A program made the translations under genes and the position numbers. A stretch of 10,696 nucleotides of DNA from a virus, in the UHGV virus genome UHGV-1749428; one strand, given 5' to 3'. Below, piece by piece: positions 504 through 10,696 of the stretch. The notes beneath the pieces were generated by a model, which was not told where the DNA came from, did no database searches, and saw only the letters and a list, made by a program, of their open reading frames with translations. Position 1 is the first letter of the stretch. Each line of letters starts with the position of its first letter.

Positions 504-522
504 GGCGAGGCGGGGAAAGCAC
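504..522. other. cos: cos cohesive-end site of a P2-like phage
   Basis: GGCGAGGCGGGGAAAGCAC matches the 19-nt cohesive-end sequence of P2/186-family phages as I recall it. It sits about 170 bp beyond the 3' end of Q, as at the P2 left end. Confidence 0.8.
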
Positions 523-662
523 TGCGCGCTGGCGGTGGTGCTGATTTTATTTTTTCGGCGTCTCAGCGCGTCGTGATGGCGTTTAGATTGTGTGCCGGGG
601 CGTCGGTGTGTCTGCGGGCTGTTTTGCGTGGAGGTGAGCGTGTGAGGGCGTGATGACGGGGT

Positions 663-686
663 GTAAAAAAGCCGCCCGCAGGCGGC
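663..686 (-). terminator. Rho-independent terminator downstream of the Q-P operon
   Basis: Perfect 6-bp GC stem GCCGCC (671-676) / loop CGCA / GGCGGC (681-686). The A6 run at 665-670 becomes a U-tract on the minus-strand transcript, 5 nt past the Q stop codon. Confidence 0.7.
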
Positions 687-691
687 GATGT

Positions 692-1726
692 TCAGCCGTT
701 GTCAGTGTCCAGTGAGTAGTTTTTAAAGCGGATGACCTCCTGACCGAGCCAGCCGTTTATCTCGCGGATCCTGTCCTGTAGCGGGATAAGCTCATTGCGG
801 ACAAAGACCTTTGCCACTTTCTCAATATCGCCCAGCGACCCGACGTTCTCCGGCTTGCCGCCCATCAACTGAAAGGGGATGCGGTGCGCGTCCAGCAGGT
901 CAGCGGCGCTGGCTTTTTTGATATTAAAAAAATCGTCCTTCGTTGCCACTTCACTGAGCGGGATAATTTTAATGCCGTCGGCTTTCCCCTGCGGGGCATA
1001 GAGAAACAGATTTTTAAAGTTGTTGCGGCCTTTCGACTTCACCATGTTTTCGCGGAGCATTTCGATATCGTTGCGATCCTGCACGGCATCGGTGACGTAC
1101 ATGATGTATCCGGCATGTGCGCCATTTTCGTAATACTTGCGGCGGAACAGCGTGGCCGACTCATTCAGCCAGGCAGAGTTAAGGGCGCTGAGATATTCCG
1201 GCAGGCCGTACAGTTCCTGATTAATATCCGGCTCCAGCAGGTGAAACACGGAGCCGGGCGCGAAGGCTGTCGGCTCGTTGAAGGACGGCACCCACCAGTA
1301 AACATCCTCTTCCACACCACGGCGGGTATATTTTGCCGGTGAGGTTTCCAGCCTGATAACTTTACCGGTGGTGCTGTAACGCTTTTCCAGAAACGCATTA
1401 CCGAACACCAGAAAATCCAGCACAAAGCGGCTGAAATCCTGCTGGGAAAGCCACGGATGCGGGATAAATGTCGACGCCAGAATATTGCGTTTGACGTAAA
1501 TCGGTGAGCTGTGATGCACGGCAGCACGCAGGCTTTTTGCCAGACCGGTAAAGCTGACCGGTGGCTCATACCATCTGCCGTTACTGATGCATTCGACGTA
1601 ATCCAGAATGTCACGGCGGTCGAGTACCGGCACCGGCTCGCCAAAGGTGAATGCCTCCATTTTCGGGGTGCTGGCGGTCATTTTTTTTGCCGCAGGTTGC
1701 GGTGTTTTCCCTTTTTTCTTGCTCAT
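692..1726 (-). CDS. Q: Portal protein gpQ
   Basis: 344 aa, the same length as P2 gpQ, and the translation (MSKKKGKTPQPAAKKMTASTPKMEAFTFGEPVPV…) is recognisable as the P2 portal. The start overlaps the P stop (ATGA). Confidence 0.93.
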   Translation of the reverse strand: MSKKKGKTPQPAAKKMTASTPKMEAFTFGEPVPVLDRRDILDYVECISNGRWYEPPVSFTGLAKSLRAAVHHSSPIYVKRNILASTFIPHPWLSQQDFSRFVLDFLVFGNAFLEKRYSTTGKVIRLETSPAKYTRRGVEEDVYWWVPSFNEPTAFAPGSVFHLLEPDINQELYGLPEYLSALNSAWLNESATLFRRKYYENGAHAGYIMYVTDAVQDRNDIEMLRENMVKSKGRNNFKNLFLYAPQGKADGIKIIPLSEVATKDDFFNIKKASAADLLDAHRIPFQLMGGKPENVGSLGDIEKVAKVFVRNELIPLQDRIREINGWLGQEVIRFKNYSLDTDNG

Positions 1727-3498
1727 CAGTAAAACTCCAGAATGGTGGATGTCAGCGGGGTGCTGATACCGGCGGTGAGTGGCTCATTTAACAGGGCGTG
1801 CATGGTCGCCCAGGCGAGGTCGGCGTGGCTGGCTTCCTCGCTGCGGCTGGCCTCATAGGTGGCGCTGCGTCCGCTGCTGGTCATGGTCTTACGGATAGCC
1901 ATAAACGAGCTGGTGATGTCGGTGGCGCTGACGTCGTATTCCAGACAGCCACGGCGGATAACGTCTTTTGCCTTGAGCACCATTGCGGTTTTCATTTCCG
2001 GCGTGTAGCGGATGTCGCGCGCGGCAGGATAGAACGAGCGCACGAGCTGGAACACGCCGACACCGAGGCCGGTGGCATCAATACCGATGTATTCGACGTT
2101 GTATTTTTCGGTGAGTTTGCGGATGGATTCAGCCTGGGTGGCAAAGTCCATGCCTTTCCACTGGTGACGCTCAAGTATTCTGAATTTGCCACCGGCCACC
2201 ACCGGCGGTGCCAGCACCACGCATCCGGCGCTGTCTCCACGGTGTGACGGGTCGTAACCAATCCATACCGGACGTGAGCCGAACGGATTGGCGGCAAACG
2301 GCGCATAGTCTTCCCATTCTTCCAGCGTGTCGACCATGCAGCGTTGCAGCTCCTCGAACGGGAACACCGATGCCTTGTCGTCAACAAATTCACACATGAA
2401 CAGGTTTTTAAAATCGTCGGCGCTGTTTTCACGTTTGAGCTGCTCAATGTCGAACAGTGTGCAGCCACCTTTCAGGGCATCCTCAATGGTGACAATCTGC
2501 CGCCACTGGCCGTCCGCACAGAGAAGACCACCGGCAAGGGCGTTATGACTGACGTCGATTTCCACGCGTTCGGCGGCGCTGGCGCGTCCCCGGTTAAACA
2601 GTTCACCCGACCAGAACGGGTAGGCGTCGTGCGCCAGCGTGGACGGGGTGGAGAAATAGGTCGAGCGCAGGTGACTCTGTGAGGCCATACCTGATGCCAC
2701 CTTACGCAGTACCTGAAAATTCGGGATCCAGAAAATCTCGTCGACGTACAGGTCGCCGTTATGGCTCTGCGCGGTGTTGGAGTTGGTGCCGAGAAAAATC
2801 AGTTTTGCGCCGTTATTGCCCAGGACAATCGGGTCACCGGTCAGGTCAACGTCAACCAGACGGGCAAAGGCGATGATGTATTCGCGGAACACATACGCCT
2901 GTGTTTTACTGGCCGACAGAAAAATCTGGTTATGACCGGTTTTCAGGGCGCGCAGCAGCGCCTCGCGGGAAAAATAAAACGTCGCGCCAATCTGGCGGGA
3001 TTTCAGTATATCGCGGATGCGGTGCTCAAGCCCGGCGCGATACCAGTGCAACTGATAGTCGAAAGACTGCTCAAAGAAAATCTGCTCCAGCTTTTCGATG
3101 GCTTCGTCACTGAAAAAATTCTTTTTCGGTTTGCGACGCTCGCCTTTGTTGCGGTTAGCGACGTTCGGATTAAGGTCTGCCTCGTTGCCGGTCTGGCTGT
3201 AGCGGTTGACCCGTGCCAGTCGTTCAATCTGGCGTCCCAGCAGGTCAATTTCCTTGAAGTCACCGCCGGTTTTCTGCGGTTTGATGATGAGCTGGGTCAG
3301 CCGCGCTTCCAGGCTCATTTCGACACGGCTGATGGGGGCAACGCTGTCCCAGCCGTCGCGCTGTTTCCAGCTCTGCACCGTCGGGCGTTTCATCTGCAAC
3401 ATGGCGGCAATCTGCGGCACGGAAAACCCCTGCCAGTACAGCAGCGCCGCCTGACGACGCGGGTCGTGTAAAAGAGTGGTGTCTGTGGTGATGGTCAT
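1726..3498 (-). CDS. P: Terminase large (ATPase) subunit gpP
   Basis: 590 aa from the ATG at 3496-3498 (MTITTDTTLLHDPRRQ…), preceded by GAGG 5 nt upstream. The ORF track's longer start at 3528 adds 10 residues with no RBS. Length and sequence match P2 gpP. Confidence 0.93.
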   Translation of the reverse strand: MTITTDTTLLHDPRRQAALLYWQGFSVPQIAAMLQMKRPTVQSWKQRDGWDSVAPISRVEMSLEARLTQLIIKPQKTGGDFKEIDLLGRQIERLARVNRYSQTGNEADLNPNVANRNKGERRKPKKNFFSDEAIEKLEQIFFEQSFDYQLHWYRAGLEHRIRDILKSRQIGATFYFSREALLRALKTGHNQIFLSASKTQAYVFREYIIAFARLVDVDLTGDPIVLGNNGAKLIFLGTNSNTAQSHNGDLYVDEIFWIPNFQVLRKVASGMASQSHLRSTYFSTPSTLAHDAYPFWSGELFNRGRASAAERVEIDVSHNALAGGLLCADGQWRQIVTIEDALKGGCTLFDIEQLKRENSADDFKNLFMCEFVDDKASVFPFEELQRCMVDTLEEWEDYAPFAANPFGSRPVWIGYDPSHRGDSAGCVVLAPPVVAGGKFRILERHQWKGMDFATQAESIRKLTEKYNVEYIGIDATGLGVGVFQLVRSFYPAARDIRYTPEMKTAMVLKAKDVIRRGCLEYDVSATDITSSFMAIRKTMTSSGRSATYEASRSEEASHADLAWATMHALLNEPLTAGISTPLTSTILEFY

Positions 3499-3671
3499 GA
3501 ATACCTCGCCGTGATGAATACACGGCAAGGCTACTGAGTCGCGCCCCGCGATTCGCTAAGGTGCTGTTGTGTCAGTGATAAGCCATCCGGGACTGATGGC
3601 GGAGGATGCGCATCGTCGGGAAACTGATGCCGACATGTGACTCCTCTAATCACTATTCAGGACTCCTGACA
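3499..3671. promoter_or_regulatory. Divergent P/O intergenic control region (expected late promoters for the P-Q and O-N-M-L operons)
   Basis: 173-bp non-coding gap between divergently transcribed P and O; in P2 this holds the Ogr-dependent late promoters P_P and P_O. No clean TGT-N12-ACA dyad found by eye; a direct repeat GACTCCT lies at 3639-3645 and 3661-3667. Confidence 0.5.
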
Positions 3672-4526
3672 ATGGCAAAAAAAGTCTCAAAATTCTTTCG
3701 TATCGGCGTTGAGGGTGACACCTGTGACGGGCGTGTCATCAGTGCGCAGGATATTCAGGAAATGGCGGAAACCTTTGACCCGCGTGTCTATGGTTGCCGC
3801 ATTAACCTGGAACATCTGCGCGGCATCCTGCCTGACGGTATTTTTAAACGTTATGGCGATGTGGCCGAACTGAAGGCCGAAAAGATTGACGATGATTCGG
3901 CGCTGAAAGGCAAATGGGCGCTGTTTGCGAAAATCACCCCGACCGATGACCTTATCGCGATGAACAAGGCCGCGCAGAAGGTCTACACCTCAATGGAAAT
4001 TCAGCCGAACTTTGCCAACACCGGCAAATGTTATCTGGTGGGGCTGGCCGTCACCGATGACCCGGCAAGCCTCGGCACGGAATACCTGGAATTCTGCCGC
4101 ACGGCAAAACACAACCCCCTGAACCGCTTCAAATTAAGCCCTGAAAACCTGATTTCAGTGGCAACGCCCGTTGAGCTGGAATTTGAAGACCTGCCTGAAA
4201 CCGTGTTCACCGCCCTGACCGAAAAGGTGAAATCCATTTTTGGCCGCAAACAGGCCAGCGATGACGCCCGTCTGAATGACGTGCATGAAGCGGTGACCGC
4301 TGTCGCTGAGCATGTGCAGGAAAAACTGAGCGCCACTGAGCAGCGCCTCGCTGAGATGGAAACTGCCTTTTCCGCACTTAAGCAGGATGTGACTGACAGG
4401 GCGGATGAAACCAGTCAGGCATTCACCCGCCTGAAAAACAGTCTCGACCACACCGAAAGTCTGACCCAGCAGCGCCGCAGCAAAGCCACCGGCGGTGGCG
4501 GTGACGCCCTGATGACGAACTGCTGA
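3672..4526 (+). CDS. O: Capsid scaffolding protein gpO
   Basis: 284 aa from the ATG at 3672 (MAKKVSKFFRIGVEGDTCDGRV…), with AGGA 9 nt upstream. Length and sequence match P2 gpO; the ORF track's upstream start at 3606 is an extension. Confidence 0.93.
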   Translation: MAKKVSKFFRIGVEGDTCDGRVISAQDIQEMAETFDPRVYGCRINLEHLRGILPDGIFKRYGDVAELKAEKIDDDSALKGKWALFAKITPTDDLIAMNKAAQKVYTSMEIQPNFANTGKCYLVGLAVTDDPASLGTEYLEFCRTAKHNPLNRFKLSPENLISVATPVELEFEDLPETVFTALTEKVKSIFGRKQASDDARLNDVHEAVTAVAEHVQEKLSATEQRLAEMETAFSALKQDVTDRADETSQAFTRLKNSLDHTESLTQQRRSKATGGGGDALMTNC

Positions 4527-4584
4527 CCGGCGTCAGTCAGTCCGGGAAAACCTTCACGATTAACCCTTAATTTCAGGAAAAACT

Positions 4585-5658
4585 ATGCGCCAGGAAACCC
4601 GCTTTAAATTTAATGCTTACCTGTCCCGTGTTGCCGAACTGAACGGCATCGACGCCGGTGATGTGTCGAAAAAATTCACCGTTGAACCGTCGGTCACCCA
4701 GACCCTGATGAACACCATGCAGGAGTCCTCTGATTTTCTGACCCGCATCAACATTGTGCCGGTCAGCGAAATGAAAGGGGAAAAAATTGGCATCGGTGTC
4801 ACCGGCTCCATCGCCAGCACCACCGACACCGCCGGTGGCACCGAGCGTCAGCCGAAGGACTTCTCGAAGCTGGCGTCAAACAAGTACGAATGCGACCAGA
4901 TTAACTTCGATTTTTATATCCGCTACAAAACGCTGGACCTGTGGGCGCGTTATCAGGATTTCCAGCTCCGTATCCGTAACGCCATTATCAAACGCCAGTC
5001 CCTTGATTTCATCATGGCCGGTTTTAACGGCGTGAAGCGTGCCGAAACCTCTGACCGCAGCAGCAATCCGATGCTGCAGGATGTGGCGGTCGGCTGGCTG
5101 CAGAAATACCGCAATGAAGCCCCGGCGCGCGTGATGAGCAAGGTCACTGACGAGGAAGGTCGCACCACCTCTGAGGTCATCCGCGTGGGTAAGGGCGGTG
5201 ATTATGCCAGCCTTGACGCACTGGTGATGGATGCGACCAACAACCTGATTGAGCCGTGGTATCAGGAAGACCCTGACCTTGTGGTGATTGTGGGGCGTCA
5301 GCTACTGGCGGACAAGTATTTCCCCATCGTTAACAAGGAGCAGGACAACAGCGAAATGCTGGCCGCTGACGTCATCATCAGCCAGAAACGCATCGGCAAC
5401 CTGCCAGCGGTACGCGTCCCGTACTTCCCGGCGGATGCGATGCTCATCACGAAGCTGGAAAACCTGTCCATCTACTACATGGATGACAGCCATCGCCGCG
5501 TGATTGTGGAAAACCCGAAACTCGACCGCGTGGAGAACTACGAGTCAATGAACATTGATTACGTGGTGGAAGACTACGCCGCCGGTTGTCTGGTGGAAAA
5601 AATTAAGGTCGGTGATTTCTCCACACCGGTTAAGGCGACCGCAGAGCCGGGAGCGTAA
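4585..5658 (+). CDS. N: Major capsid protein gpN
   Basis: 357 aa, the same length as P2 gpN (MRQETRFKFNAYLSRVAELNGIDAG…), with an AGGA RBS 7 nt upstream of the ATG. Confidence 0.95.
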   Translation: MRQETRFKFNAYLSRVAELNGIDAGDVSKKFTVEPSVTQTLMNTMQESSDFLTRINIVPVSEMKGEKIGIGVTGSIASTTDTAGGTERQPKDFSKLASNKYECDQINFDFYIRYKTLDLWARYQDFQLRIRNAIIKRQSLDFIMAGFNGVKRAETSDRSSNPMLQDVAVGWLQKYRNEAPARVMSKVTDEEGRTTSEVIRVGKGGDYASLDALVMDATNNLIEPWYQEDPDLVVIVGRQLLADKYFPIVNKEQDNSEMLAADVIISQKRIGNLPAVRVPYFPADAMLITKLENLSIYYMDDSHRRVIVENPKLDRVENYESMNIDYVVEDYAAGCLVEKIKVGDFSTPVKATAEPGA

Positions 5659-5661
5659 CCG

Positions 5662-6399
5662 ATGACGAGTCCCGCACAGCGCCACATGATGCGGGTCTCG
5701 GCAGCGATGACCGCGCAGCGGGAAGCCGCCCCGCTGCGACATGCAACTGTCTATGAGCAGATGCTGGTCAAGCTGGCCGCAGACCAGCGCACACTGAAAG
5801 CGATTTATTCAAAAGAGCTGAAGGCCGCGAAAAAACGCGAACTGCTGCCGTTCTGGTTGCCGTGGGTGAACGGTGTGCTGGAGCAGGGCAAAGGTGCACA
5901 GGATGACATTCTGATGACGGTCATGCTGTGGCGTCTGGATACCGGCGATATTGCCGGTGCGCTGGAGATTGCCCGTTATGCCCTGAAGTACGGTCTGACC
6001 ATGCCGGGTAAACACCGCCGCACCCCGCCGTACATGTTCACCGAGGAGGTGGCGCTCGCGGCCATGCGCGCCCACGCTGCCGGTGAGTCTGTGGATACCC
6101 GCCTGCTGACGGAGACCCTTGCACTGACCGCCACGGCAGACATGCCTGATGAAGTGCGCGCAAAGCTGCACAAAATCACCGGTCTGTTTCTGCGTGACGC
6201 TGGTGATGCCGCCGGTGCGCTGGCTCACCTGCAACGTGCGACACAGCTCGACTGTCAGGCAGGCGTCAAAAAAGAGATTGAACGACTGGAGCGGGAGCTG
6301 AAACCGAAGCCGGAGCCAAAAGCGGTCACCCGCGCCCCGCGTAAGACCCGGAGTGCGACACCGGCAAAACGTGGACGCCCGAAAAAGAAAGCCAGTTAA
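5662..6399 (+). CDS. M: Terminase small (endonuclease) subunit gpM
   Basis: 245 aa immediately after N (3-nt gap, GGAG RBS inside the end of N); sequence recognisable as P2 gpM, with a basic C-terminal tail. Confidence 0.9.
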   Translation: MTSPAQRHMMRVSAAMTAQREAAPLRHATVYEQMLVKLAADQRTLKAIYSKELKAAKKRELLPFWLPWVNGVLEQGKGAQDDILMTVMLWRLDTGDIAGALEIARYALKYGLTMPGKHRRTPPYMFTEEVALAAMRAHAAGESVDTRLLTETLALTATADMPDEVRAKLHKITGLFLRDAGDAAGALAHLQRATQLDCQAGVKKEIERLERELKPKPEPKAVTRAPRKTRSATPAKRGRPKKKAS

Positions 6400-6498
6400 C
6401 AACCGAATGCGCCCCGCGCCAGGGCGGCACGCCGGTCTGTGAGGGTGAATCACCTGACACTGTACCGGCGTCCACCGCCCGACTTTTCAGAGGTAGTC

Positions 6499-7008
6499 AT
6501 GATGACGCTGATTATTCCGCGAAAGGAGGCTCCCGTGTCTGGTGAGGGTACGGTGGTCATCCCGCAACCGGCAGGCGACGAGCCGGTGATTAAAAACACG
6601 TTCTTTTTTCCCGATATCGACCCGAAGCGCGTCCGGGAACGTATGCGCCTTGAGCAGACCGTCGCCCCCGCCCGTCTGCGAGAGGCCATCAAGTCAGGCA
6701 TGGCGGAGACGAATGCGGAGCTGTACGAGTACCGCGAACAGAAAATTGCTGCCGGTTTTACGCGTCTGGCGGACGTCCCGGCGGACGACATCGACGGTGA
6801 AAGCATCAAAGTTTTTTACTACGAGCGCGCCGTGTGTGCGATGGCGACCGCGTCGCTTTATGAGCGTTATCGCGGTGTGGATGCCAGTGCGAAAGGCGAC
6901 AAGAAGGCTGACAGCATTGACAGCACCATCGATGAACTGTGGCGGGATATGCGCTGGGCAGTGGCGCGCATCCAGGACAAGCCGCGCTGCATCGTGAGTC
7001 AAATCTGA
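6499..7008 (+). CDS. L: Head completion/stabilisation protein gpL
   Basis: 169 aa from the ATG at 6499 (MMTLIIPRKEAPVSGEG…), with AGAGG 5 nt upstream. Matches P2 gpL length; the ORF track start at 6439 is an extension. Confidence 0.92.
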   Translation: MMTLIIPRKEAPVSGEGTVVIPQPAGDEPVIKNTFFFPDIDPKRVRERMRLEQTVAPARLREAIKSGMAETNAELYEYREQKIAAGFTRLADVPADDIDGESIKVFYYERAVCAMATASLYERYRGVDASAKGDKKADSIDSTIDELWRDMRWAVARIQDKPRCIVSQI

Positions 7009-7211
7009 TGAAGACCTTTGCGCTACAGGGCGACACGCTCGACGCCATTTGTGTCCGGTATTACGGGCGCACTGAGGGCGTGGTCGAGGCCGTGCTCGCC
7101 GCAAATCCGGGACTGGCTGAACTGGGTGCGGTGCTGCCACACGGCACCGCCGTCGAACTGCCCGACGTTCAGACCGCGCCCGTGGCTGAAACTGTCAATC
7201 TGTGGGAGTAA
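7008..7211 (+). CDS. X: Tail protein gpX
   Basis: 67 aa (MKTFALQGDTLDAICVRYYGRTEGVVEAVLAANPGL…), start overlapping the L stop (ATGA). Matches P2 gpX; the ORF track start at 6939 lies inside L in another frame. Confidence 0.9.
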   Translation: MKTFALQGDTLDAICVRYYGRTEGVVEAVLAANPGLAELGAVLPHGTAVELPDVQTAPVAETVNLWE

Positions 7212-7214
7212 CGC

Positions 7215-7496
7215 ATGACAGCAGAAGAAAAAAGCGTCCTGTCGCTTTTCATGATTGGGGTGCTGATTGTTGTCGGCAAGGTGCTTGCCGGTGGTGAACC
7301 CATCACCCCGCGTCTGTTTATCGGGCGCATGTTGCTCGGTGGTTTTGTCTCAATGGTTGCCGGTGTTGTTCTGGTGCAGTTTCCTGACCTGTCACTGCCT
7401 GCGGTGTGCGGCATTGGCTCCATGCTGGGTATCGCCGGTTATCAGGTGATTGAGATTGCCATTCAGCGCCGCTTTAAGGGCAGGGGGAAACAGTAA
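7215..7496 (+). CDS. Y: Holin gpY
   Basis: 93 aa with hydrophobic transmembrane segments and a charged C-terminus (…QRRFKGRGKQ); length and sequence match P2 Y. It is the first gene of the lysis cassette. Confidence 0.92.
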   Translation: MTAEEKSVLSLFMIGVLIVVGKVLAGGEPITPRLFIGRMLLGGFVSMVAGVVLVQFPDLSLPAVCGIGSMLGIAGYQVIEIAIQRRFKGRGKQ

Positions 7497-7993
7497 TGCC
7501 GGTAATTAAAACACATCAGAATATCGCCGCCTTTCTCGACATGCTGGCCGTGTCCGAAGGGACGGCGAATCATCCGCTGACGAAAAACCGGGGCTATGAC
7601 GTGATAGTCACCGGACTGGACGGGAAGCCGGAAATTTTCACCGACTACAGTGACCACCCGTTCGCGCATGGCCGACCGGCGAAGGTATTTAACCGTCGCG
7701 GTGAAAAGTCCACGGCCTCCGGTCGCTATCAGCAGCTTTACCTGTTCTGGCCGCACTACCGCAAACAGCTTGCCCTGCCGGATTTCAGTCCGTTGTCACA
7801 GGACAGACTCGCCATTCAGTTGATCCGCGAACGCGGTGCACAGGATGACATCCGGGCGGGACGCATTGAGCGCGCCATTTCACGCTGTCGCAATATCTGG
7901 GCGTCCCTGCCGGGAGCCGGTTACGGTCAGCGTGAGCATTCACTGGAAAAACTGGTCACCGTCTGGCGTACCGCTGGCGGCGTACCGGCTTAA
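7496..7993 (+). CDS. K: Endolysin gpK (lambda R-like lysozyme/transglycosylase family)
   Basis: 165 aa (MPVIKTHQNIAAFLDMLAVSEGTANHP…), start overlapping the Y stop (TAATG) with a GGGGG RBS upstream. Matches P2 gpK. Confidence 0.93.
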   Translation: MPVIKTHQNIAAFLDMLAVSEGTANHPLTKNRGYDVIVTGLDGKPEIFTDYSDHPFAHGRPAKVFNRRGEKSTASGRYQQLYLFWPHYRKQLALPDFSPLSQDRLAIQLIRERGAQDDIRAGRIERAISRCRNIWASLPGAGYGQREHSLEKLVTVWRTAGGVPA

Positions 7994-8007
7994 ACGGAGT
8001 AAACACC

Positions 8008-8433
8008 ATGAAGAAATTATCCCTTTCACTGATGCTGAACGTGTCGCTGGCGCTGATGCTGGCACTGTCCCTGATTTACCCGCAGAGCGTGGCCGTCAGT
8101 TTTGTCGCCACCTGGGCGATTCTGGCGACGGTTATCTGTGTGGTTGCCGGTGGTGTCGGCGTGTATGCCACTGAGTATGTACTGGAACGCTACGGACGGG
8201 AGCTGCCGCCGGAATCGCTGGCCGTGAAGATTGTCACGTCGCTGTTTTTGCAGCCGGTGCCGTGGCGCAGACGGGCGGCGGCTCTGGTGGTGATGGTGAC
8301 GACGTTTATCTCGCTGGTCGCTGCCGGGTGGATTTTTACCGCGCTGATTTATCTTGTGACGTCGCTGTTTTTCCGGCTGATACGTAAAGCCTGTCGTCAG
8401 CGTCTTGAGGGGCGGGAACTATGTCAAAGCTGA
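8008..8433 (+). CDS. lysA: Lysis-timing membrane protein LysA
   Basis: 141 aa, strongly hydrophobic with several predicted transmembrane segments, located after the endolysin as in P2. Confidence 0.88.
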   Translation: MKKLSLSLMLNVSLALMLALSLIYPQSVAVSFVATWAILATVICVVAGGVGVYATEYVLERYGRELPPESLAVKIVTSLFLQPVPWRRRAAALVVMVTTFISLVAAGWIFTALIYLVTSLFFRLIRKACRQRLEGRELCQS

Positions 8434-8846
8434 TGACTGTGCTGGTCGTGTTGTTATCGCTGGCGGTGGCCGGTCTGTTTCTGGTGAAACACAAAAATGC
8501 CAGCCTGCGCGCCTCGCTGGACAGGGCGAATAACGTCGCCAGTGAACAGCAGACGACCATCACCATGCTGAAAAATCAGCTTCATGTTGCACTCACCAGA
8601 GCAGACAAAAACGAGCTGGCGCAGGTGGCACTGCGTCAGGAACTGGAGAACGCCGCGAAGCGTGAAGCACAGCGCGAGAAAACCATCACGAGGTTACTGA
8701 ATGAAAACGAAGATTTTCGCCGCTGGTACGGTGCTGACCTGCCTGATGCTGTGCGCCGGTTGCACCAGCGCCCGGCCTGCACCGACGCCAGTGATTGTCG
8801 CCAACGCCTGCCCGAAAGTGAGCCTTTGCCCGATGCCGGGCAGTGA
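8421..8846 (+). CDS. lysB: Rz-like inner-membrane spanin LysB
   Basis: 141 aa with an N-terminal transmembrane segment (MSKLMTVLVVLLSLAVAGLFLV) followed by a charged, coiled-coil-like periplasmic region; overlaps the lysA end by 13 nt. Confidence 0.88.
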   Translation: MSKLMTVLVVLLSLAVAGLFLVKHKNASLRASLDRANNVASEQQTTITMLKNQLHVALTRADKNELAQVALRQELENAAKREAQREKTITRLLNENEDFRRWYGADLPDAVRRLHQRPACTDASDCRQRLPESEPLPDAGQ

Positions 8847-8991
8847 CCCGCAGACGAACGGCGATTTAAGTGCTGATATCCGGCAGCTTGAGAACGCGCT
8901 GGCACGCTGTGCCAGCCAGGTAAAAATGATTAAACACTGTCAGGACGAAAACGATGCTCAAACCCGACAGCCTGCGCAGGGCGCTGACTGA
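8701..8991 (+). CDS. lysC: Rz1-like outer-membrane lipoprotein spanin LysC
   Basis: 96 aa starting in the +1 frame inside lysB and running into R; signal peptide with a Cys-containing lipobox-like motif (…LTCLMLCAGCTS…) and Pro-rich mature region. Same length and arrangement as P2 lysC. Confidence 0.82.
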   Translation: MKTKIFAAGTVLTCLMLCAGCTSARPAPTPVIVANACPKVSLCPMPGSDPQTNGDLSADIRQLENALARCASQVKMIKHCQDENDAQTRQPAQGAD

Positions 8992-9421
8992 TGCCGTCAC
9001 GGTGCTGAAAACTAACCCCGATATGCTGCGGATATTCGTGGATAACGGGAGTATTGCCTCCACACTGGCGGCGTCGCTGTCATTCGAAAAGCGTTACACG
9101 CTCAATGTCATTGTGACCGACTTTACCGGTGATTTTGACCTGCTCATCGTGCCGGTGCTGGCGTGGCTGCGGGAAAATCAGCCCGACATCATGACCACCG
9201 ACGAAGGCCAGAAAAAGGGCTTCACGTTTTATGCAGACATCAACAATGACAGCAGCTTTGATATCAGTATCAGCCTGATGCTGACCGAGCGCACGCTGGT
9301 CAGTGAGGTTGACGGTGCGCTGCATGTGAAGAATATCCCGGAACCTCCGCCGCCGGAGCCGGTCACCCGCCCGATGGAGCTTTATATCAATGGTGAACTG
9401 GTGAGTAAGTGGGATGAATGA
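8954..9421 (+). CDS. R: Tail completion protein gpR
   Basis: 155 aa (MLKPDSLRRALTDAVTVLKTNPDMLRIF…), with a PEPPPPEP tract near the C-terminus; length and sequence match P2 gpR. Confidence 0.92.
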   Translation: MLKPDSLRRALTDAVTVLKTNPDMLRIFVDNGSIASTLAASLSFEKRYTLNVIVTDFTGDFDLLIVPVLAWLRENQPDIMTTDEGQKKGFTFYADINNDSSFDISISLMLTERTLVSEVDGALHVKNIPEPPPPEPVTRPMELYINGELVSKWDE

Positions 9422-9866
9422 GTTTAAGCGTTTTGAAGACCGGCTGACCGGACTGATTGAATCGCTGTCACCGTCAGGGCGTCGGCGACTGAGCGCCGAA
9501 CTGGCGAAACGTCTGCGGCAGAGTCAGCAGCGTCGGGTGATGGCACAGAAAGCCCCGGACGGCACACCCTACGTGCCACGCCAGCAGCAGAGCGCCAGAA
9601 AAAAGACCGGTCGCGTTAAGCGAAAAATGTTTGCGAAACTTATCACCAGTCGTTTTTTGCATATCCGCGCCAGCCCGGAGCAGGCATCAATGGAGTTTTA
9701 CGGCGGGAAGTCACCGAAAATCGCCAGTGTGCATCAGTTCGGTCTGTCGGAAGAAACCCGGAAAGACGGTAAGAAAATTGATTATCCGGCGCGTCCTCTG
9801 CTCGGCTTTACCGGTGAGGATGTGCAGATGATTGAAGAGATTATCCTGGCTCACCTCGACCGTTAG
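9414..9866 (+). CDS. S: Tail completion protein gpS
   Basis: 150 aa (MNEFKRFEDRLTGLIESLSPSGRRR…), overlapping the R end by 8 nt; length and sequence match P2 gpS. Confidence 0.92.
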   Translation: MNEFKRFEDRLTGLIESLSPSGRRRLSAELAKRLRQSQQRRVMAQKAPDGTPYVPRQQQSARKKTGRVKRKMFAKLITSRFLHIRASPEQASMEFYGGKSPKIASVHQFGLSEETRKDGKKIDYPARPLLGFTGEDVQMIEEIILAHLDR

Positions 9867-9932
9867 TTGTGCCATTCCTGACACCTCATCGTCACATTGC
9901 CGCCGGTATGACCCGGCGGCATCCTTCCCGTT
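9867..9932 (+). promoter_or_regulatory. S-V intergenic region with a perfect GC-rich hairpin; expected site of late promoter P_V
   Basis: GCCGCCGG (9899-9906) / loop TATGAC / CCGGCGGC (9913-9920), 12 nt before the V start codon, with no U-tract after it. In P2 an Ogr-dependent late promoter precedes V; promoter elements were not identified by eye. Confidence 0.35.
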
Positions 9933-10536
9933 ATGAACACTCTCGCAAATATTCAGGAACTCGCGCGCGCACTGCGCAACATGATTCGTACCGGCCTTGT
10001 CGTCGAAACCAACCTTAAAGCCGGTCGCTGCCGTGTGCAGACCGGCGGCATGTGCACCGACTGGCTTCAGTGGCTGACCCATCGCGCCGGACGTTCGCGC
10101 ACATGGTGGGCACCTTCCGTGGGGGAACAGGTGCTGATTCTGGCTGTGGGCGGTGAACTCGACACGGCGTTCGTTCTGCCGGGGATTTATTCCGGCGATA
10201 ACCCCGCGCCGTCTGCGTCGGCGGATGATTGAGTATGAACCCGAAACCAGTGCACTCACGGTAAGCGGAATTAAAACGGCCAGCGTGACGGCTTCTGATT
10301 CTGTTACTGCCACGGTGCCGGTGGTCATGGTGAAAGCATCAACCCGCGTCACCCTGGACACACCGGAGGTGGTCTGCACCAACAGGCTGATTACCGGCAC
10401 GCTGGAAGTGCAGAAGGGCGGGACGATGCGCGGCAACATTGAACACACCGGCGGTGAACTCTCATCAAACGGGAAGGTACTGCATACCCATAAACACCCC
10501 GGCGACAGCGGCGGCACAACCGGGAGCCCTCTATGA
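9933..10536 (+). pseudogene. V: Baseplate central spike gpV, split by a frameshift into a 99-aa N-terminal ORF (9933-10232) and a C-terminal ORF in the +1 frame (ATG at 10225, ending 10536)
   Basis: The N-terminal ORF (MNTLANIQELARALRNMIRTG…SASADD*) stops at TGA 10230-10232. The V-like sequence resumes in the +1 frame (MIEYEPETSALTVSGIKTASV…HTHKHPGDSGGTTGSPL). The two parts total about 201 aa against 211 aa recalled for P2 gpV, consistent with a deletion of about 32 nt near 10224-10228. Confidence 0.75.
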
Positions 10537-10696
10537 CAGCGCGTTATCTCGGAATGAATCGCAGTGATGGCCTGACTGTCACTGACCTTGAGCATATCAG
10601 CCAGAGTATCGGCGATATCCTGCGCACACCGGTCGGCTCACGGGTGATGCGTCGTGATTACGGCTCGTTGCTGGCGTCAATGATTGACCAGCCGCA
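10533..10696 (+). CDS. W: Baseplate assembly protein gpW (gp25-like), 3'-truncated by the window end
   Basis: ATG at 10533 overlapping the V stop (ATGA); translation MTARYLGMNRSDGLTVTDLEHISQSIGDILRTPVGSRVMRRDYGSLLASMIDQP… matches the P2 gpW N-terminus. Absent from the ORF track because no stop codon falls inside the window. Confidence 0.88.
   Translation, partial: MTARYLGMNRSDGLTVTDLEHISQSIGDILRTPVGSRVMRRDYGSLLASMIDQP

Follow-up and report, generated by a model that had tools for sequence, protein, structure and literature searches.

The gap between genes P and O was identified as the pP/pO divergent late-promoter region of bacteriophage P2, in which one activator site is shared by the two promoters (probability about 0.95). 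The assignment rests on identity to P2, on the curated positions of its features, on their geometry and on their conservation among related phages. The feature is already known and ordinary, and its importance beyond correct annotation is slight. All positions refer to the window, that is, the whole stretch of 10,696 nucleotides of the UHGV virus genome UHGV-1749428 that was analysed; P2 record coordinates were converted by adding 505. The features of the region are as follows.

3499..3671, no strand: P-O intergenic control region, 173 bp, 100% identical to P2 AF063097 2994-3166.
3521, minus strand: transcription start of the P operon (P, Q), from P2 record misc_feature 3016.
3528..3533, minus strand: pP -10 hexamer TAGCCT, at -12 to -7 (AAGGCTA invariant in the alignment).
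3562..3592, no strand: activator (Ogr/Delta) binding site common to pP and pO, from P2 record 3057-3087 ("activator binding site; pO, pP promoters").
3568..3585, reading TGG-N12-ACA on the minus strand: imperfect dyad TGT-N12-CCA, TGTgtcagtgataagCCA, with its centre at 3576.5.
3620..3625, plus strand: pO -10 hexamer GAAACT, at -12 to -7 (GGAAACT invariant in the alignment).
3632, plus strand: transcription start of the O operon (O, N, M, L, X, Y, K, lysA, lysB, R, S), from P2 record misc_feature 3127.
3639..3645, plus strand: first GACTCCT, at +8 to +14 of the O leader, not conserved.
3657..3674, plus strand: ribosome-binding block TCAGGACTCCTGACAATG, comprising the second GACTCCT (3661-3667), the AGGA Shine-Dalgarno sequence (3659-3662) and the O start codon.

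The window aligned to P2 over most of its length (504-9868 against P2 1-9369, 97.7% identity), and the element is therefore a close relative of P2. Positions 3400-3800 (401 nt) were 99.8% identical to P2 and to dozens of Peduovirus genomes, and the gap with its immediate flanks (3480-3690) was 100% identical to P2. The P2 pP/pO region is thus the same 173 bp, flanked by the same two genes and carrying the curated activator site and start sites. No difference from P2 was found inside the gap, while the surrounding genome is that of a P2 relative which lacks orf30 and has a different right end. The gap lies between the complement of the P start codon (3496-3498) and the O ATG (3672-3674). P encodes the terminase large subunit and O the scaffold, and the gene order is that of P2, which places the gap upstream of late operons, as is typical of late promoters in the P2 family. 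The original prediction that this 173-bp gap holds the promoters of the divergent P-Q and O-N-M-L... operons was borne out by the P2 record, in which both starts are curated. The longest O ORF opens at an in-frame ATG at 3606, which is upstream of the mapped pO start, and the usable O start is therefore the curated one at 3672. The longest P ORF likewise opens upstream, at a TTG at 3528, ahead of both the curated ATG at 3498 and the pP start.

Polymorphism within P2-type elements was surveyed in 80 IMG/VR loci whose gpO was 99-100% identical, a sample that is informative for polymorphism but not for divergence. The exact 173-bp gap was present in 51 of these loci, and the other 29 carried one to three substitutions. 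The variants fell in the dyad spacer and elsewhere. None fell in the TGT at 3568-3570, in the CCA at 3583-3585 or in either -10 hexamer.

Both promoters have a weak core. Each has a recognisable -10 hexamer lying 43.5 bp from the dyad centre, but the -35 candidates were poor (TGGCGG for pO and GCGAAT for pP). A sigma-70 consensus scan detected no promoter at either start site; its sole match was at 3666-3693, inside the O start region. Poor -35 elements and the lack of a sigma-70 match at the starts fit activator-dependent promoters, and a core with a recognisable -10 and no good -35 is characteristic of P2-family late promoters. We took the definition of these promoters, with a dyad at about -55, from statements in PMC3152322 and PMC3931495. 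According to the former, Ogr, a small zinc-binding protein, binds conserved inverted repeats centred at about -55 of the P2 late promoters and must contact the alpha subunit of RNA polymerase to activate them. The latter gives four late promoters in P2, with the consensus TGT-N12-ACA.

An exact scan for this consensus found no perfect TGT-N12-ACA in the gap. The window as a whole contained only two, at 349 and 8476, where chance would give 2.58. Since the exact scan had no match in the gap, it was relaxed to one mismatch, and the partial dyad symmetry TGT-N12-CCA was then recovered inside the curated activator site. It sits within CTGTTGTGTCAGTGATAAGCCATCC, exactly midway between the two start sites, and its left half-site is CTGTTGTG (3564-3571). 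The original report of no clean dyad therefore stands for the perfect motif but not for the motif with one mismatch. The relaxed motif is not significant alone, with 0.67 dyads of at most one mismatch expected per shuffled gap. Since it carries no statistical weight of its own, the assignment of the site stands on position, conservation and the P2 curation. Binding at 3562-3592 is taken from the GenBank curation and from secondary citations, the literature basis being secondary statements in PMC3152322, PMC3931495 and PMC5694545.

The position of the dyad is that expected of a late promoter of the P2 family. The dyad centre is at -55.5 from both curated start sites. As the start sites are 111 bp apart, a single activator site occupies the canonical position for both promoters. 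The original prediction had suggested that the late-activator sites may be degenerate or different here, with standard, conserved sites near -55 of each promoter as the alternative. The latter was what we found, in the form of one shared site rather than two: the gap is that of P2 without change, and the imperfect dyad is conserved.

Conservation was examined in an alignment of the window with 186, Yersinia MHG38, Klebsiella ST147-VIM1phi7.1, Yersinia YenM_56.17 and Enterobacter ENT4. Three elements were invariant in the six aligned phages, which are about 75-80% identical overall: CTGTTGTG, GGAAACT and AAGGCTA. The right half-site was CCA in P2, 186 and Klebsiella phi7.1 and ACA in YenM_56.17, which thus has a perfect TGT-N12-ACA. 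The distance from the pO -10 hexamer to the dyad centre was 43.5 bp in all five phages checked. For pP the distance was the same in P2, 186, MHG38 and Klebsiella phi7.1, and was 44.5 bp in YenM_56.17. Such conservation of the site and core elements among related phages is a further property of P2-family late promoters.

A close annotated parallel was the p12/pV region of 186 (NC_001317 3753-3865), which has divergent promoters and a single central site for the B protein, as in the window. In the homologous gap, the 186 record has one "B protein" site, described as "activation of pV and p12 promoters", with two B-dependent promoters on either side. The left half-site CTGTTGTG, the CCA right half, both -10 hexamers and the 43.5-bp spacing are shared. 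The 186 gap differs in being about 79% identical overall, in its dyad spacer and O leader, and in lacking the first GACTCCT copy and a 9-bp insertion.

Phages for a wider comparison were picked from the spread of tblastn matches. One central dyad per P-O gap was also found in more distant Peduoviridae, and it was a perfect N12 dyad in SopEPhi and Klebsiella phi12.1. An N13 dyad was found in the P-O gaps of RSA1, phiE202 and PHL101, and the PHL101 record is annotated here with "possible activator protein". Using a simple pattern and annotated gene boundaries, no clear dyad was found in the gaps of HP2, phi3 and Smp131, which are more distant lineages. PMC3931495 places the PP' and PO' promoters of Smp131 on one stretch of 18 bp, read from opposite strands.

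Taken with statements in the literature, the arrangement suggests how the region may work. Two weak promoters of the sigma-70 type face outwards, each having a usable -10 and no recognisable -35. A zinc-finger late activator, either Ogr of P2 or one of its homologues, Delta of P4 and B of 186, would bind the central dyad. The activator would lie at about -55 on either side and could recruit RNA polymerase through its alpha subunit; P2-family late promoters are defined in part by their dependence on such an activator (Ogr, Delta or B) and on its contact with the C-terminal domain of alpha. Late in infection this would turn on the packaging genes (P, Q) together with the genes for head, lysis and tail completion (O to S). 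A single activator complex on the central pseudo-palindrome may thus switch both divergent operons simultaneously. Delta is described as an Ogr homologue in statements in PMC8628076 and PMC7552001, according to which both proteins promote late gene expression of P2 and P4. The ogr gene, which occupies 24036-24254 in P2, is not part of the 10.7-kb window.

The direct repeat GACTCCT had been proposed as part of the control region. Its two copies were confirmed at 3639-3645 and 3661-3667, 22 bp from start to start, but we consider it very unlikely that the repeat is functional, for example as a regulator binding site or as a translational control element of the O leader. Counting another copy on the minus strand (4721-4727), the window contains three, against 0.74 expected, and three were reached in 9 of 200 shuffles. 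The second copy (+30 to +36 of the O leader, overlapping the ribosome-binding site) belongs to a block showing 100% conservation between P2, 186 and Klebsiella phi7.1, and this block can fold as a small hairpin (5 bp with a 3-nt loop) over the Shine-Dalgarno sequence. However, dinucleotide-preserving shuffling of the gap gave a direct repeat of at least 7 nt in 2466 of 5000 cases (49%), and each copy of GACTCCT lies beyond the pO start. Conservation of the first copy is confined to the P2 lineage: the aligned bases are AACCCCA in 186 and, in Klebsiella phi7.1, TAACCCG. A 9-bp insertion in P2 shifts the spacing between the copies. The conservation of the second copy is accounted for by the ribosome-binding site and start codon, and the fold of the O-leader RNA as a whole was no more stable than those of shuffles (z = -0.81). 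We read the repeat as a chance match between the conserved ribosome-binding block and a leader stretch specific to the P2 lineage.

The ribosome-binding block itself, TCAGGACTCCTGACAATG, was identical in P2, 186, MHG38 and Klebsiella phi7.1 and had one change in ENT4. Its palindrome TCAGGACTCCTGA (3657-3669) spans the O Shine-Dalgarno sequence, and the single T to A change of ENT4 falls in the predicted loop. The palindrome may fold into a small hairpin and sequester the Shine-Dalgarno sequence, or it may be no more than a conserved ribosome-binding site. A more elaborate role for TCAGGACTCCTGA, as an operator that controls scaffold synthesis in translation or at the DNA level and is modulated by the P2-specific upstream GACTCCT (for example, through an anti-Shine-Dalgarno-like CUCCU competing for AGGA), seems highly improbable. 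A second 7-mer direct repeat in the gap, ACTGATG (3592-3598 and 3623-3629), was also at chance level; its downstream copy overlaps the pO -10 hexamer (GAAACTGATG).

The absence of a perfect dyad had also been taken as a hint that the prophage, or a satellite using the site, depends on a non-P2 activator because the site is degenerate or of another type. The gap indeed lacks a perfect TGT-N12-ACA, but it is identical to the Ogr-dependent region of P2 itself, and the same CCA deviation is present in pF of P2 as well as in 186 and Klebsiella phi7.1. In a scan of the P2 genome, a perfect TGT-N12-ACA was present in none of the three curated activator sites, whereas five perfect matches were found, all of them outside these sites. 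The pO/pP and pF sites of P2 are both TGT-N12-CCA, and pV is either TGT-N11-ACA or TGT-N14-ACA. The pF site has the same GTTGTG...AGCCA.CC pattern, with its centre at -57.5. Unlike pP/pO, both pF and pV are unidirectional. An imperfect dyad is normal for P2. Since a strict TGT-N12-ACA scan overlooks every curated late-activator site of P2 itself, the lack of a perfect dyad is no evidence for a divergent activator, and we give the suggestion of one next to no credence. The late promoters of P2-like prophages are better located through homology, through the left half-site GTTGTG and through how far that half-site lies from the -10 hexamer.

A separate activator site for each promoter is hardly to be expected in place of the shared one: sites at -55 of both promoters had been anticipated, and another dyad with one mismatch is present at 3654-3671, but -55 from each start is the same position, the additional dyad comes after the pO start and overlaps the ribosome-binding site, a single site is curated in the record of P2 and likewise in that of 186, and the alignment contains one conserved dyad block.

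Further observations were made elsewhere in the window. Positions 504-522 correspond to the left cohesive end of P2, and positions 475-522 match the P2 right end (33546-33593). The window therefore spans a cos site in its joined state, as found in a prophage or a circular form. No match in P2 was found for positions 1-474, and the right-end cargo therefore differs from the P2 old/tin region.

Gene V (9933-10536) has a 32-bp deletion at 10225/10226 relative to V of P2; the missing segment is P2 10601-10632 (TGCCCTGCATATCCGTTTCCCTGACGGGGCGG), with the flanks GGCGGaT and GGCGGT. The deletion shifts the frame, resulting in ORFs at 9933..10232 (99 aa) and 10153..10536 in place of the 211 aa of P2. 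It was not found in the best 12 of 1574 E. coli records or in the best 12 of 75 phage records; these matches align to gene V as two pieces spanning 232 bp, and they thus lack the deletion. This suggests that the prophage is defective or that an error arose in sequencing or assembly. A minus-strand ORF of 294 aa at 9711..10595, antisense to S and V, is probably spurious.

The S-V junction (9867-9932) lacks orf30 of P2 and its pV upstream region. The S stop codon (9864-9866) is followed by a 66-bp spacer and the V ATG at 9933. No curated pV for this short arrangement was found in the phage records examined. The same short junction was present in 53 phage records, including those of Wphi and fiAA91-ss. 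The spacer contains a GC-rich hairpin, GCCGCCGG-tatgac-CCGGCGGC, at 9902-9923. A candidate activator half-site, GTTGTG, is located at 9866-9871, overlapping the end of S, and forms part of a TGT-N12-ACC at 9868-9885 whose centre is about -56 from the V ATG.
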